Source of the DNA: Vezdaea acicularis | Lineage: Eukaryota | NCBI GenBank assembly: GCA_026025075.1 | Contig: JAPEUI010000073.1 | Coordinates: 1 to 64,000 of the forward strand | Direction: 5' to 3' | Length of the DNA: 64,000 nt | Part shown: positions 8,657 to 31,835 of the stretch, piece by piece | How positions within the stretch are numbered: position 1 is the stretch's first letter | Layout: each line of letters begins with the position of its first letter | Translations under genes and position numbers: made by a program | Notes under the pieces: model-generated | Database searches by the model: none | What the model was told of the DNA's origin: nothing | Seen by the model: the letters and a program-made list of their open reading frames with translations, nothing else

Positions 8657-11359
8657 TCATGATATGCTCTCCCACCTTGCAAGGCGCCCAAAATGTTGCC
8701 CCGCTTCTCTTACAATGCACAGAAACATCTCACTCCCCTTGCCCTCTCCTGCCAAAACCTTACTAACTAACACGGAGCCAATTCCGATCCCATTTCCCTC
8801 CGAGAGATTGAATCCTCCCTCGGTCACAAAGCCGATCAAATCCTCTTCGCCTGGAACAACCGGATATGTTTTGTCTCCAGGCTTTGGCGGGCCAGCCCTT
8901 TCCCCAACTTCTATCCCTAACAATGAAGCAGCCAATTTCTGGCGGCGGACTTCTGGAGGGTCTGAAGGCTTGGGCCGGAAATATCCAATATCTCGTTTAG
9001 AAGTTCGCGCTAGCTGGTTTCTTGGCACTAGAAGAGAAACCCATCGTTTGTATAGTCCTCTATCCCTGCTTGGTAGTCGATAGATGCGGGAGCAAGGCGG
9101 TGACGTACCACGAGGAAGTAACGTCAACTTCACTGTGGTCAGAGCTGAATTTAGCTTTAAACTTTCAATAGTCTCGGTAAGGTTTGCTGCGGATGCTTTT
9201 GAACGCTTGAGCAGCTCCAAGAACTCGGATGAACAGAGATGATACAGCCTTTGTGAGGGCTTGATTGCCCCCTCGGGAATCTCATTATCGGCATTGACAG
9301 TGTCATCTTTGATAGCTGTATCTTTCGGTGTGAGCCTAGACGGAGGCGCATCTGGCGGTGGTCCATCAATTAAACGTTCCCATGCACAGGCCCAACCTTC
9401 TCCTAACTCGCCCTTCTTCCCATTCCCTAAATTCAAGCTGCTCCATTCAACTCTTTTACCCTTAGGTCTCCTGTCCCATTCTGCCTTTCGCCTTTCTCTT
9501 TCGACTAATTCCCATGCCCAGCCTGCTTTTGTGCCGGGGAAATCACCAGGAAACCAAGCTTTCCCTTGCTCGAATGAGAGCTGCCTCGTTTCACGTAGGC
9601 CACCAAATCGAGGATTGCCGCCAGTAGAGAGCGGAATATGCATGAGCATATACCAGACTGGCAAAACGCATTTCCATGGGATAAGAACAGTCCAGGATCC
9701 CTGCCCTCCATGGCCACTTTTGTTTCGAGAAGCTAAGAGCAGGATGGGTATATTGGGGTCGTGAGGGATTGGAGTAGGATAGTGTCCTGCAGGTGCAAGA
9801 CCCTTCCGGCGATTGATCGATTTCTGGCTCGCTAACCCACGAGAAGCCTCAAGGCGCGCGTCTTGCGAGAATATTTTTGCTGGTCCTTGAGTGGCATCAA
9901 GGGGCCAATCCCTCAAAGTTTCTAGAAGTCTCTCTTCATCCAGCTCAGGAGGCTGACTGCGCTCCAATGGCCAAGGAGGATGATGAAGGCGAGGATCTGA
10001 GATTTCGAATGCCAGTAGAGCACCTTTGACCAATGACGCGGGATTGGTAAGAGCTCTTAAGGAGATCCAGGTTCCCGCAGGCGTATGTGACGACCTTTCC
10101 AGCTTGTTAGTGATACCAAAGGGCCACAAGGTGCTTTGTAGGGCCTCCGTAGATCCAGGCCCTGTTATCTCAATACTACCGATTTCAAAGCGGAGGTCCT
10201 CAACCATGACCTGGGGTCGTTGTCTCTTTCCAATTTGCAATGATTTGGTCCATAGCTGGAGGAATGCTGATGGATGAACTCTGATCATCACTGCCCTTTT
10301 CCCGCCCGCTCCAGATTTTATAGAGCCATGTTTGGTCTTGTTAGCTGCGCCAGCGCCAGAAATATCGCTTGATTCTGACATCCCTTGAACGCACCATATG
10401 ATAGTCACTGGAGCAATAGGATTCTCAGTAACGTTTTCATAAACCCAACCTTGCCAGCTTCGCACCCCTTTCCTCCATTTTGCACCTTTTCTGCCCCATG
10501 CTTCATCCCCAACAACACCCAAAAGCTGCAGTAAGGATGTTATACTCTCCTCAGAACTCTGCAATCCGATAGTACTCATATAGCTTGTATCCCAGCCCAC
10601 AGCCCCCCTGAGCTCGCTTGCTCGGTGGGTAGGTCGATAGCTTTTTTCGGTTGGTGTCAATGGCAACGCAAACCGCCAAAAGGGGGCTTTAGGCTCCGTC
10701 ATGCGCGCGCGCTTCGAGTGAAACACGTGCGTTGGGAGCCAGGTCTTATTTAGCTGCCTTTTACGGAATTTCGACGGGGGCTTGGGAGGACAACTAAGGG
10801 CACCATTTTGCATTTTGATCCTGAGCTTTCGAGGTTCGACACGGACTGCATAGTTGGGATCAACCCCTAGGACTTCCGAAGTATTCGAAGCCTTCTTCTC
10901 CCTCTTCTGCCGTGCCCTTTCACCCAAAACCTCCAATCTCTTTGCGGTCTCAGCTCTAAGCCACCCTCTAGATGTATCTGGCCTTCTCCTGCTCGCTTTC
11001 ACTACGGGCGTGTTATCTTCTCTCATCTCTTTCCTTGCCCTAGGTCGCATCCTCTGCGGAAGACGTTTGACATTGTGACTGGCAGTCCTCCTTCGCAAAT
11101 CTCGGGGCAGACTTTGGTGTGCACGAGTACTCATTGCTTTTCTTGAACCCAGAATGCTGGCTTCCAGAGCGCGAATCTCAAATTCTCGCGCCTTAATAAA
11201 GGCACCAACATCAATGGCGCCATCTTTGAAGGCCGCATCGTTCGGCTGAGTTGCAATGGTACGAGCATCTTGTCGCTTACTACGCTTTGCAGGTCGCTCC
11301 TCTGATGTCGGATTGACAGCAGGTGTGCTCCTTCTTTTTTGATTTATCTTCGGCGGCAT
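8657..11359 (-). CDS. POP1: RNase P/MRP protein subunit Pop1
   Basis: Intronless 900-aa ORF; LPRDLRRRTASHN and WLPTHVFHSKRARM (POP1 domain), FEQGKAWFPGDFPGT (POPLD), IGFVTEGGFNLSEGNGIGIG. Confidence 0.93.
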   Translation of the reverse strand: MPPKINQKRRSTPAVNPTSEERPAKRSKRQDARTIATQPNDAAFKDGAIDVGAFIKAREFEIRALEASILGSRKAMSTRAHQSLPRDLRRRTASHNVKRLPQRMRPRARKEMREDNTPVVKASRRRPDTSRGWLRAETAKRLEVLGERARQKREKKASNTSEVLGVDPNYAVRVEPRKLRIKMQNGALSCPPKPPSKFRKRQLNKTWLPTHVFHSKRARMTEPKAPFWRFALPLTPTEKSYRPTHRASELRGAVGWDTSYMSTIGLQSSEESITSLLQLLGVVGDEAWGRKGAKWRKGVRSWQGWVYENVTENPIAPVTIIWCVQGMSESSDISGAGAANKTKHGSIKSGAGGKRAVMIRVHPSAFLQLWTKSLQIGKRQRPQVMVEDLRFEIGSIEITGPGSTEALQSTLWPFGITNKLERSSHTPAGTWISLRALTNPASLVKGALLAFEISDPRLHHPPWPLERSQPPELDEERLLETLRDWPLDATQGPAKIFSQDARLEASRGLASQKSINRRKGLAPAGHYPTPIPHDPNIPILLLASRNKSGHGGQGSWTVLIPWKCVLPVWYMLMHIPLSTGGNPRFGGLRETRQLSFEQGKAWFPGDFPGTKAGWAWELVERERRKAEWDRRPKGKRVEWSSLNLGNGKKGELGEGWACAWERLIDGPPPDAPPSRLTPKDTAIKDDTVNADNEIPEGAIKPSQRLYHLCSSEFLELLKRSKASAANLTETIESLKLNSALTTVKLTLLPRGTSPPCSRIYRLPSRDRGLYKRWVSLLVPRNQLARTSKRDIGYFRPKPSDPPEVRRQKLAASLLGIEVGERAGPPKPGDKTYPVVPGEEDLIGFVTEGGFNLSEGNGIGIGSVLVSKVLAGEGKGSEMFLCIVREAGQHFGRLARWESIS

Positions 11360-11741
11360 TCCGCTTATCCGTTTGTGACGCGTTTACAGGTTCGACGCGT
11401 GTGAACTTTGAAGTCGAACTCTCTGGTAAATGCAATTGGTGGAAGCGATTTAAGCTTTTAAAGAGCCAATGGGAAGTGAGGTGTGGTAAAGGCGGTGAAA
11501 ATATTCTGTTCCAGCGTCCACGCTTAGCGTCAGGGCTGACGAATGCCTTGCCGGCATTGGCGGCTACTTGTGCCTGGAACCCATAATTCGTAACCGGAAC
11601 AACAAGAAACTATCACAGCGTTAGCCTTCTCCCATCCCTTGGTTCTTTAATCTATACTGGTTACCTGTAGCTTCTTTCTCAACCATTACGTTTATTACCA
11701 CGGAGACTCATCGACTTCCATCTGATCACAACCAGACTCAA

Positions 11742-12818
11742 ATGAACCGCTACCGCGGTCCGGCATTTGGTGGTCCGTCGAAGGCTACACCTCAGACTCT
11801 TTGCCAGAAATGCCTCAAGCGAGATAAGTTCAAACTTGCGTGAGCTAACTTGCTCTTACTTACCTTATATTACGGCACTATAGTTATGAGTGCAAGGCTC
11901 AGACACAGGAGCGTCCATACGCCTCTCGTCCTTCTCGAACTCAACAGCTTCTTAACCCTAAATTAGCACCTAAGCTGACGAGCGACCTGCCAAATGCGTT
12001 GCAATCGAAGCAAGTCCCTTTCTTCCATTGGTCGCCATTCAGTTTCTAGGGCTAATTATTGGCCAACACTTAGGAAGGATTTGACGGAGGAAATTCTCGG
12101 GAAAGACAGGTCAAACCGCAAGTCAAAAGGCGATGATGGAGATGGCATGGATTACATCGGTGGTCGCCGGCGATCCATCTCGGCCTCGCCCTTCTCATCT
12201 GGCTCGGCTACTTCGACCGATGACTCCAGAGGATCATCGGTTAGGGGCGAAGACAAGTATTATCATTCTCAGCAATCACCGAGCATTCTTAGGAAGGAAA
12301 TTGGCACTAGGAAACGGCGAAGAAGCCTGACATCTTCTGAAAGGTCCCTTTCCTCAGAACCATCCGAGCGTGAGGCTAGACCGATATCCAGAGACCAGGA
12401 GAGAAACACAAGAGCTAGACGCGGTCTTCTCAGTCCAGATGAGCGTGGTCGACGACGAAGCCGTTCTAGGGAGGGTCGCAAGCGTGGAAGGAGTAGGAGT
12501 AGGACGCGTAGTGTTCATCGAGGTCATACCACTCGTGTTAGCCGCTCAGTAACCCCTCATCGACCCACTCGACAGGATGCTTTGTTTGATAGTCCTAGAG
12601 AGAGGGGACATTATGACCGAGAGATCGAGCATATCGGTCGAAGGAATCGTAGTGACCAAAACCGTCATGACTCATATGATGAAAGAGGCCGTAATAATGG
12701 GAGAAGAGAGGAAGAGAGCCGAAAGGAGAACCAGACCCGCCCACCCCCGAAGGAGAGGAGCTTGAGCCCGTTCAGCAAACGCCTTGCGCTTACGCAGGCC
12801 ATGAATATGGGGAGGTAA
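11742..12818 (+). CDS. ZCCHC10-like CCHC zinc-knuckle protein with RS-rich tail
   Basis: Model 11742-11823, 11874-12009, 12074-12818 gives CQKCLKRGHYSYEC...RPYASRPSRTQQL, then an Arg/Ser-rich region ending SPFSKRLALTQAMNMGR. Requires one AT-AC and one GC-AG intron. Confidence 0.82.
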
Positions 12819-13059: not shown

Positions 13060-13683
13060 TCATGCCATCTCTTCATCCTCCCTATCCCTCCTCTCCTCTT
13101 CAGCCTCTTCTCTCTCACGCTCACGAACACCTTCAACCAACATGCCGCCCTCCATCCCAACTGCTTCCCCGTCAGCACCGTCTATTCCTGCTTTAGTTTT
13201 CGCTCTCTCCTGTGCGGCTCGTATCCTCTCTCTTACGAGCCTCGCAATTGCGTTGTCTGTCCTCACATTTAAGATCTTCATTTTCTGATCTACGTCTCTT
13301 TTCAGATCCCAGTTCGGCTTCTTAGGCTGTAGTGTGAACAAATCAATCGGCTTGTCTGTTCCATCCCTCTTCGCCTTCTCAGCTGTCTCTCGCGCTATTT
13401 GAGCAGCTTGGTCTTCGAGGGTCTTTAGGTTTTCGTTGGGTAAAGTTTCGAAACCGAGTTTGGGGCCCCTGGTCGCTATATCATAGTTTCGTCCGGAGAG
13501 GTAGGTACTTGTTACGTCGGGGGTTGTCTCTTTCTCTTCTCTAGGCTCAGGTGAGGTTGCTTTCGTAGTGTGATCTTCCTCATCGTCTTGTGGAGGCTGT
13601 TTGCGTTTTAGAGATTTAAGCTTAGCTAGGCGTGCTTTGCGCTCGGTGGCTGCAGCGTCGAGAGAGGCGTGAGTTGAAGCCAT
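13060..13683 (-). CDS. cwf18: Pre-mRNA splicing factor Cwf18 (CCDC12-like)
   Basis: ERKARLAKLKSLKRK, LSGRNYD, IDLFTLQPKKPNWDLKRD motifs; intronless. Confidence 0.9.
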   Translation of the reverse strand: MASTHASLDAAATERKARLAKLKSLKRKQPPQDDEEDHTTKATSPEPREEKETTPDVTSTYLSGRNYDIATRGPKLGFETLPNENLKTLEDQAAQIARETAEKAKRDGTDKPIDLFTLQPKKPNWDLKRDVDQKMKILNVRTDNAIARLVRERIRAAQERAKTKAGIDGADGEAVGMEGGMLVEGVREREREEAEEERRDREDEEMA

Positions 13684-14708
13684 ATTAGTGGGCTTTCGAA
13701 TAATAAATCTCACACCTCCCTGATCTCCGTACTATATGTTTCAAAGGGCCGTGGGGTTCTGGGGTCATTTCGATGTGTAATGGTAGAACGAAAACATTTG
13801 GATTCGCAAGCGAGACCAAGGTCACGTCTAATTCAAGGTCTGGATGGTACCAATTTTGAAGAATGAAGGCTTCTAAGAATGGGGCACATTGACACATAAC
13901 CCCAATAAAGTAATTGAATTGCTCTGGTAGTAGAGCATTTCAACACTTAGGAAGCTCTATATCATAACCCTGTGACTATCATATCATGGTAAAGATCCCC
14001 AAGAACGAGCGAGTTTATAAAGGGCTTGTTGTAAATGTTCATACTGCAGTCCAAAGAAACAGAAAACAACCATCCGCATGCCATGCTATCTCTTCTTGTC
14101 TCATCAGGTACATTTCGCTATAAATACATCGACTAAAGCCCTCTAACCAAGCGCACCAGAACCCTAGGTGGAACGCCTCGTATTGCGTCCTTCCGTATTG
14201 TACGCTCACTGTATAAACAGAGTTACCTTCTAGAAATTAGTCTTGCCAATATTTAGACTTGGGATCTGGTGTTTCACAGCCATAAGTACACAGCATATGC
14301 TAACGTAGGGGCTTAGCCGCTCTCCTACCCTTGCGCATTTCCAAAAGGACCCTACGAAGACACTGTTAAGATTAGCCTTTGCGGTTGAAAGACTGAGGAA
14401 GTGGTTGATTCTAGTATTACCCGTCCTTGTTACGATCCATCCAGCCCGGAACTACAGCATGAGTATACGTGGAAGTACAAATTAATAGTAGAATCACAAG
14501 AAGAAGTGATTGAAAGTTAAAGAGTGCAGACTACCGTTATACCAAGTTAGAACATCTTCAAAGGCAAGCTCAATAGACGGTTGACTTGCCATAGTATTCC
14601 CTCCGTTCTGAATTCTGAGATTGTTGTCGTTGGCGGGCTTGACTTGAGCAGGCGCAAAGGTTGATAATTGGCCAGATTTGTGAAGTTCGCGAACGCCTTT
14701 GAGTTTCG

Positions 14709-30807: not shown

Positions 30808-31835
30808 CTCGGCGCTATGAGAGCAAAGAGCGAAGTAGATTAGGAAATCTAGCAAAGAACAGACTAGGAGAAGATGACCAAGACAACGCTTGCCGATGTC
30901 CCAGGATCGCGTAGCTATATAAAGGTCAATGTCAGCAGGATTTGTTAATTATTCCAGATGATCTGAGGTTGAATGGAGCGATGAAAGAGTACATTAAATG
31001 CGTATTGTGCATAGGTGACAATTGAAGGGCTCAAGGCTCTTTTGCGTTGTGATGGAACTTTAGCACCAACCATGATGTCACCGGCGATATGATAATCCAG
31101 CGGCCCGAAGTCAATCCTGGTACTAGCTAGGTGAGAGAATTCGTTTCTTTCGAATCTTTGCTGCTGTCCTCCAAATCCGACCAAAATGAAGATAAACAAT
31201 ATAATATTCAAGATATTAGACAGAATAGTACATTCGACCATAGGTATTGGAATACTGGGCATCCCGTCCGCTCTGCCATACATAAGCCAATAACCGACTG
31301 ATTAGTAGTTGGGTGGGTGACCACCAGCGAATCCCAGTTGTTGAATGTTTTTGACCATCCTTTTTGCCCACCAATCGCACCTAGGATATAGCACGTGATA
31401 TCGGCGAAAGATCATTCGTAACCACCGATAGGCTAGGATGCGGCAGCACTGCCCCAGATGCAAGTCTTGCCGTGCGCCCTGCTATTACTGCTGCATTCAG
31501 TGAGCGTATCCCGCCCAGCCCGAGCGGTGCATCAAAAGGCCGCGTGTGCTTGAACGAAGACTTCTATTGTCATTGGATGCAACATCGCACACGGTCTGCA
31601 TGACAAGCTTTGGCGGATTGGACTTAGTTTTAGTGGCTGACGACTCATCGTCATCACCGCCTTATGCCCTTGACATGTATGGCCTTGTCAAAGAAGAAAC
31701 AGTTCTAATATCGCTTACATCTCGTAAACCCTCAGGCACAACTTTATCCCTTCTGCCTATATCTTCCCTCGGTCAAACGAAGATAAACCTCTTCACCTAA
31801 ATCATCTTCTGATACTCATCTAATATCGCTCAACC

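Follow-up and report, generated by a model that had tools for sequence, protein, structure and literature searches.

A probable U2-dependent AT-AC intron in the zinc knuckle of a ZCCHC10-like gene of Vezdaea acicularis and other Pezizomycotina

In the 64,000-nucleotide (nt) stretch of DNA analysed here (the window), from the lichen-like fungus Vezdaea acicularis, a gene coding for a ZCCHC10-like protein with an arginine/serine-rich (RS-rich) tail is interrupted at positions 11824-11873 by what is very probably a real AT-AC intron of the U2-dependent kind (type II). This intron, here called intron 1, splits a glycine codon of the protein's zinc knuckle, and an intron with the same or nearly the same ends is found at that codon in many lineages of Pezizomycotina, among them moulds and lichens only distantly related to one another. 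The class to which it belongs is known but very rare; the example itself is new, and it is notable for the depth of its conservation in organisms without a minor spliceosome.

The intron and its host gene

Exon 1 runs up to 11823 with the letters tgc ctc aag cga g, and exon 2 opens at 11874 with gg cac tat agt tat gag tgc. The letters between them are ATAAGTtcaaacttgcgtgaGCTAACttgctcttacttaccttatattAC, i.e. ATAAGT...GCTAAC...TTAC. When these are cut out, G|GG is joined, CGA GGG CAC is read and the peptide CQKCLKRGHYSYEC results, with a complete CX2CX4HX4C knuckle that is present only once 11824-11873 has been removed. If the intron is retained, the frame opened by the ATG at 11742 runs into a TGA at 11841-11843, and the unspliced open reading frame (ORF) ends ...CLKRDKFKLA*. 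The letters, the codon phase, the restored knuckle and the in-frame stop of the unspliced RNA are all as a first-pass annotation of this DNA had claimed. By eye, no AG is seen in the window from the branch region to the His codon, and a GT-AG or GC-AG intron would therefore be unable to restore the His.

Contigs from three other sequencing runs span intron 1, those of X1 and X2 being 95-99% alike and that of X5 about 94% alike, and among the differences listed none falls at 11824, 11825, 11872 or 11873. The differences listed for X5 within the intron lie at 11827 (turning ATAAGT into ATACGT), 11839, 11861 and 11868. A further run (X7, guessed to be of RNA) contributed a contig of a distant relative, which touches only the conserved ends of the gene.

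The frame from 11876 encodes HYSYECKAQTQERPYASRPSRTQQLLNPKL..., and intron 2 provides the sole frame-compatible junction between exon 2 and the long RS-rich ORF of exon 3 (Table 1). On the Pfam family zf-CCHC_3 (PF13917), the exon 1 peptide falls weakly on positions 2-13 of 41 (E 0.048), and the exon 2 peptide scores 43.7 bits (cut-off 27; E 2.5e-11) over positions 15-41; position 14, matched by neither, is the split Gly codon. An intact orthologue (P0254) covers positions 1-41 of 41 with 69.7 bits (E 1.9e-19). An alignment of ten exon-2 peptides marks exon 2 (HYSYEC...RPSRTQQL) as the most conserved part of the protein. Several Aspergillus orthologues bear the RefSeq label 'zinc finger CCHC-type containing 10', and the knuckle protein, named by its Pfam family and these labels, looks like a fungal counterpart of ZCCHC10.

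The same gene is represented in NCBI by P0130, a public 280-residue model titled 'MAG: hypothetical protein [Vezdaea acicularis]' (MAG, metagenome-assembled genome; Pezizomycotina, Vezdaeales). The N-terminus encoded by exon 1 is identical to that of P0130 and similar to those of the orthologues. The first 33 residues of the model are the unspliced window ORF, and residues 34-280 are identical to window exon 3 at 247/247 positions. P0130 thus fuses ...CLKRDKFKLA with KDLTEE, which implies a GTGAGC donor at 11840 and an acceptor at 12073 (11839^12074). Exon 2 is skipped, so that the most conserved segment and one half of the knuckle are lost, and the model has no Pfam match.

Table 1. Positions, in window numbering, of the knuckle gene, its splicing signals and the other features discussed
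Feature	Position	Strand	Remarks
Exon 1	11742..11823	+	MNRYRGPAFGGPSKATPQTLCQKCLKR plus first base G of the Gly codon; CxxC half of the knuckle
Intron 1	11824..11873	+	50 nt, AT-AC ends, phase 1 within the Gly codon of the knuckle Gly-His
5' splice site ATAAGT	11824..11829	+	fungal U2-type GTAAGT with G1 changed to A
GCTAAC, candidate branch site	11844..11849	+	perfect U2-type consensus; A at 11848, 25 nt from the 3' end
CTTAC, second candidate branch site	11859..11863	+	A at 11862, 11 nt from the 3' end, a spacing kept in orthologues
3' terminal AC of intron 1	11872..11873	+	-2 A in 32/32; -1 C in 30/32, A in 2/32
Exon 2	11874..12009	+	GG of Gly, then HYSYECKAQTQERPYASRPSRTQQLLNPKLAPKLTSDLPNALQS plus AA; second half of the knuckle and conserved RPSRTQQL segment
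Intron 2	12010..12073	+	64 nt, GC-AG, GCAAGT...CTAAT...TTAG, phase 2
Exon 3	12074..12818	+	RS-rich tail ...ERSLSPFSKRLALTQAMNMGR, stop TAA at 12816-12818
POP1 (RNase P/MRP subunit)	8660-11383	-	908-codon frame; POP1_N, POPLD, POP1_C; divergent from the knuckle gene
cwf18 pre-mRNA splicing factor	13063-13731	-	convergent downstream neighbour of the knuckle gene
5S ribosomal RNA (rRNA)	31230-31349	+	Rfam RF00001, 77.7 bits; sole Rfam match in the window

Conservation of the intron and of its signals

Orthologous loci were collected by scanning metagenome contigs from the ten aligned exon-2 peptides, the best 80 of 182 relatives being kept, and at each locus the stretch from the CxxC codons to the His codon was read. 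Seventy-nine loci could be classified (78 loci and the window); two others are truncated at contig ends but keep ...AC|GC before the His. An intron is present at exactly the same phase-1 Gly codon in 52/79 loci, which together hold 32 distinct sequences of 47-67 nt: 30 of these have AT-AC ends, two have AT-AA ends and none has GT-AG ends. The remaining 27/79 loci are intron-less, with a GGN (Gly) codon at that place, and all encode Gly-His. The first-pass annotation had proposed aligning orthologous loci for conserved AT..AC ends, which are indeed what the alignment returned; its picture of a singular oddity of one ascomycete gives way to that of an old and widely conserved intron.

Among the 32 distinct introns, A at +1, T at +2, A at +3 and G at +5 are each found in 32/32, +6 is mostly T (28, the other four having A), and +4 can be any base; the exon base at -1 is G in every one. 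At the 3' end, -2 is always A, -1 is C (30) or A (two), and 27 have a pyrimidine at -3. Exon 2 opens with G in 32/32, so that the split codon is always G|GN and always specifies Gly. Identity is 27.9% at four-fold degenerate sites of exon 2 (496 pairs) and 30.2% in the intron interior from +7 to +20 (32 lineages), and the intron-bearing lineages fall into 27 groups below 90% exon-2 identity. As the lineages are so diverged, the invariant ends are held by selection and not by recent common descent. The frame is shifted by 23/32 introns and interrupted by an in-frame stop in 18/32, one or the other applying to 28/32, and read-through therefore cannot be the normal product.

The two AT-AA sequences come from L015 and L041 on the one hand and from L025, L030 and L035 on the other. 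L025 has an AC two bases upstream of its AA end, which would break the frame if used. Both AT-AA lineages carry a TCC Ser codon and so lack the cryptic AG that other lineages have downstream. AT-AA variants are known among U12 introns. No pair of complementary DNA (cDNA) and genomic sequence was found among the 80 loci; when an intron-less locus was compared with an intron-bearing one, exon identity without gaps reached 74% at most.

Among the lineages with the intron signature are the Eurotiomycetes, Lecanoromycetes, Dothideomycetes and Geoglossomycetes, together with Candelaria and Vezdaea. Genera that carry it include Aspergillus, Penicillium, Talaromyces, Histoplasma, Blastomyces, Paracoccidioides, Emmonsia, Coccidioides and Cladophialophora; Icmadophila, Sticta, Squamulea, Loxospora, Candelaria and Glutinoglossum; and Lepidopterella, Phyllosticta, Lasiodiplodia, Cenococcum, Amniculicola and Lojkania. 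Both introns appear to have been lost in most Pleosporales; the locus L042 is a single ORF, 96% identical to an Alternaria protein.

Intron 2 serves as an internal control. At its orthologous position 38 distinct sequences were found, 35 of them GT-AG and three GC-AG (the window, L051 and L076), and four more loci, which were not parsed automatically, begin with GT. L051 and its close kin L059 differ here, with GC in the former and GT in the latter, i.e. ordinary GT/GC switching. The ends of intron 2 are thus ordinary across the same genes, and only intron 1 is AT.

The internal signals of intron 1 are of the U2 rather than the U12 type, as had been claimed from the letters of the window. None of the 32 distinct introns starts with [AG]TATCC, the 5' site being GTANGT with G1 changed to A (/ATANGT), and 31/32 have a CTRAC-like branch motif, CT[AGT]A[CTG] with its A at -10 to -12, mostly in the form CTGAC or CTAAC. 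Within the last 40 nt, the best matches to TCCTTAAC, the branch box of U12 introns, have no fixed position and carry one mismatch in one intron, two in nine, three in 12 and four in 10, which is to say three or more in 22/32. The sequence CCTTAT at 11863-11868, near the 3' end of the window intron, had been put forward as the clue to a U12 relic; it is not kept in the orthologues, and the U12 motif is found in 0/32 introns. Short spacing between branch and 3' end was considered as a U12 hallmark and rejected: intron 2, plain GT-AG, has 10-18 nt too, so that a short spacing belongs to these fungi and is no U12 mark. Use of the first AC after the branch also fails as a strict rule, in L020 (three ACs) and L019 (two), while holding in most lineages.

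Relatives bear on which of the two candidate branch sites of the window is used. The orthologues have no branch at the 25-nt distance of GCTAAC, and in the X5 contig a T>G change at 11861 turns CTTAC into a consensus CTGAC, 11 nt from the end. Because of this change and of the spacing kept in the orthologues, the -11 site is read as the ancestral branch, and it is probably still the one used in the window. U12 small nuclear RNAs (snRNAs) and minor introns are given as missing from Ascomycota, including Pezizomycotina, and from Dikarya in the sections drawn on here of two surveys (PMC2846911, PMC10639083), which agree in this with the first-pass annotation. An Rfam search of the 64-kb window returned no snRNA match, the 5S rRNA being the only match of any kind.

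Splicing in other fungi and broken gene models

Sequences from other species provide good indirect evidence that intron 1 is exactly removed from the messenger RNA (mRNA) of the orthologues in Aspergillus fumigatus, Histoplasma and Coccidioides. The A. fumigatus protein of strains Af293 and A1163 has CLKRDNYEC at the knuckle, and the intron is read through in a 91-residue ORF (CLKRDKYRDF...VRHYSYEC) of a Logan contig 19 kb long. Uninterrupted 305-residue ORFs in Logan contigs of at most 2.1 kb have CLKRGHYSYEC instead and are identical to newer NCBI proteins. One of these ORFs is identical to the Af293 model at 297/305 positions, differing at the knuckle, at three intron-2 residues and by one substitution. 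For Histoplasma capsulatum G186AR, an older model begins inside the intron (MTSVDRTTRHYSYEC...) and a newer one has the knuckle intact, the two being identical from the His on (281/281). The records of Coccidioides immitis show the same contrast between intact and broken models.

Models were counted among orthologous database proteins in three search sets. A first search gave, for proteins reaching the RPSRTQQ motif, 10/27 with an intact and 17/27 with a broken knuckle, the broken ones being of the form 'D.[YF]EC' (five), reading through the intron (three), starting within it (three), keeping 'YEC only' (five) or of another form (one). With an Emmonsia protein as query, 57/104 were intact and 47/104 broken, and with an Alternaria-like protein from an intron-less locus 99/101 were intact (six of them judged by eye) and 2/101 broken. 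The expectation of the first-pass annotation that gene finders would mis-annotate the gene is borne out by these counts and by the skipping of exon 2 in P0130. CLK[RK] is followed by Asp in 37/37 models of the three sets that are 'D.[YF]EC' or read through; as Asp is encoded there by GAY (G|AY), the intron begins with A in those species too. The gene finders' alternative takes GT at +5/+6 as donor and, as acceptor, the AG in a Ser codon (AGY) lying 10 nt inside exon 2; it is possible in only 23/32 distinct introns, and this GT(+5)/AG junction deletes the His.

A sizeable fraction of the public models of the protein is wrong at the knuckle, with examples in A. fumigatus Af293, Blastomyces, Paracoccidioides, Penicillium and MAGs of lichen fungi, and the broken ones could be corrected by permitting /ATANGT...AC/ as an intron.

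Two further features of the models were noted. The Af293 model also differs from the transcript-like ORF by LGS at the intron 2 junction (P0224/P0254, A. fumigatus), from which it seems that the second intron is probably misplaced there too, the true donor being perhaps a non-GT one as in the window. Other models (P0262, P0164, P0206, P0208, P0220, P0232 and P0111) start with MLEKRYV..., MLETRYV... or MPE...; by eye, these starts look like an out-of-frame reading of the ...AAATGCYTGAARMGAGATATGT end of exon 1, a recurrent artefact of the intron.

Mechanism, rival explanations and known systems

Removal of intron 1 by the major spliceosome could proceed as follows. /AUAAGU would be recognised as if it were /GUAAGU, by U1 and then by U6, and U2 would pair with the CUNAC some 11 nt before the 3' end or else with the GCUAAC 25 nt before it. 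In the second step, the non-Watson-Crick contact between G(+1) and G(-1) would be replaced by A(+1) and C(-1), so that AC could serve as the 3' site. Each end would be tolerated only together with the other, single changes to GT or AG would be selected against, and the pair would stay locked across many Pezizomycotina lineages with loss of the whole intron as the only common exit. Mutual locking of the ends is, we infer, the simplest account of their conservation, with an A-C pairing as its putative basis. The rescue of a G1-to-A change by a last-G-to-C change is read structurally as a contact between the first and last intron bases at the second step, and double mutants of this kind were reportedly made by Parker and Siliciano in 1993, among others.

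Several points weigh against this interpretation. In the window the perfect GCTAAC sits 25 nt upstream and the CTTAC at the conserved -11 is non-consensus, while the nearer ACs (11858-59 and 11862-63) would compete if GCTAAC were the branch, and would break the frame if used. That the intron is never GT-AG holds for the 52 DNA loci found in the best 80 of 182 relatives, and the database proteins with an intact knuckle may be intron-less, correctly annotated or converted to GT-AG. The agreement of X1, X2 and X5 at the terminal bases extends to the differences listed. The short Logan and Joint Genome Institute (JGI) contigs are taken for transcripts from their size and uninterrupted frames. Splicing of intron 1 at 11823^11874 in Vezdaea itself is deduced from the DNA, and its dependence on the U1, U2, U4 and U6 small nuclear ribonucleoproteins (snRNPs) is predicted.

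The AT-AC ends are typical of U12 introns, the 10-12-nt branch spacing resembles theirs and CCTTAT lies near the end of the window intron, all of which would fit a U12-type intron served by a cryptic minor spliceosome in Vezdaea. We nevertheless find this hardly credible, as [AG]TATCC starts 0/32 introns, no match to TCCTTAAC is positioned, the GT-AG intron 2 is equally short-spaced, the surveys cited above report, in the sections drawn on, neither minor snRNAs nor minor introns in Ascomycota or Dikarya, and Rfam finds no snRNA in the 64-kb window. It is also very improbable that canonical sites are used, either with exon 2 skipped (donor at 11840, acceptor at 12073) or by way of a 56-nt GT-AG intron at 11828-11883 (giving CLKRDNYEC). 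Both arrangements are GT-AG and keep the frame, and 21 database models are of the 'D.[YF]EC' form; both, however, destroy the knuckle His, and what P0130 discards is the most conserved part of the protein, leaving no Pfam match against the E value of 1.9e-19 for P0254. Moreover, GT(+5) and the Ser-codon AG occur together in only 23/32 introns, the 27 intron-less loci all encode Gly-His, and the A. fumigatus ORFs read Gly-His-Tyr-Ser-Tyr against the Asp-Asn-Tyr of Af293. An error of sequencing or assembly hiding true GT and AG ends can practically be dismissed: nothing was found in its favour, X1, X2 and X5 have no change at the terminal bases among the differences listed, and the same kind of ends recurs in 31 further distinct introns of orthologues, drawn from many records.

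One further proposal concerns origin and is compatible with a U2-dependent AT-AC intron: intron 1 could be a former U12 AT-AC intron that gained U2 internal signals when the minor spliceosome was lost in Dikarya. The range of the intron, from the Eurotiomycetes and Lecanoromycetes to the Dothideomycetes and Geoglossomycetes and on to Candelaria and Vezdaea, shows it to be old. U12 introns have AT-AC ends far more often than U2 introns do, and type II AT-AC introns are regarded as relics, in the sections used here of Sheth et al. 2006 (PMC1557818). Against this, the U12 motif survives in 0/32 lineages and a de novo double change (G1A and G(-1)C) is an alternative, and we consider such a descent rather unlikely. 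A literature search for a link between ZCCHC10 and U12 introns gave one irrelevant hit, and supplementary lists of U12 introns may still bear on the question.

Natural introns of the type II class have been catalogued in animals. Sheth et al. 2006 (PMC1557818) count, in the sections consulted, 15 human, 6 mouse and 3 fly cases under the name 'AT-AC type II', the human ones being 15 of about 186,000 introns. Animal type II introns (SCN4A/SCN5A, TAF2) resemble intron 1 in their AT-AC ends, in an otherwise U2-type 5' site and in their extreme rarity, and, according to the same sections, their ends are likewise kept in orthologues far apart (human-pufferfish, human-Drosophila). They differ in that the fungal intron, known from sequence, occurs in hosts without a minor spliceosome, is 47-67 nt long and has its branch 10-12 nt from the 3' end. 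AT-AC type II introns have also been hypothesised in xylanase genes of filamentous fungi (PMC1557818, in the sections consulted); these too are proposed U2-type introns of Pezizomycotina, in a different gene family. The literature on fungal AT-AC introns, where general surveys only were found, yielded no description of the knuckle-gene intron.

Engineered introns supply the rationale for AT needing AC. In U2 introns of both yeast and human, a G1-to-A change is rescued by changing the last G to C (PMC1557818, in the part drawn on), and these double mutants have the same terminal pair as intron 1 in an otherwise consensus U2 intron. The mutants are laboratory constructs that splice less efficiently, whereas intron 1 is natural and kept in many lineages. 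With U12-type AT-AC introns it has the terminal dinucleotides in common; unlike them it has neither /ATATCC nor TCCTTAAC, and its host group is reported, in the parts of the surveys consulted, to be without U11, U12, U4atac and U6atac.

Few of the extremely rare natural U2-dependent AT-AC introns have been examined, and the knuckle gene offers at least 32 diverged natural versions of one, in a family that sits in organisms without a minor spliceosome, several of them genetically tractable moulds. With them one could study the pairing of first and last intron bases by the major spliceosome and its choice of a non-AG 3' site at a fixed 10-12 nt from the branch. The intron would also be an example of two splice-site bases locked together for a long span of evolution, loss in 27/79 loci being the only escape seen and conversion to GT-AG never seen.

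The knuckle gene lies between POP1 and cwf18 (Table 1). A cwf18 match downstream on the opposite strand was found in 24/80 orthologous loci (e.g. L012, L015, L031 and L067), most of the loci without such a match ending too early downstream to tell, and the pairing of two spliceosome-linked genes, the knuckle gene and cwf18, may be conserved. The catalytic C complex is the only one in which human ZCCHC10 was detected, according to the part consulted of one report (PMC3923134), and an interactome paper treats it as a spliceosome-associated protein (PMC10048706). As ZCCHC10 is in the C complex and spliceosome-associated, and as cwf18 adjoins the gene, a feedback or autoregulatory role of the intron would be worth testing, speculative though it is, as is the switch dependent on splicing fidelity that the first-pass annotation put forward. 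We regard it as a long shot that the AT-AC pair was selected as a sensor, the productive mRNA reporting, or feeding back, on second-step or proofreading activity; the basis for this speculation is a second step that would depend on the A(+1)-C(-1) contact, the fixed 10-12-nt spacing and the premature stop that follows if the intron stays in.

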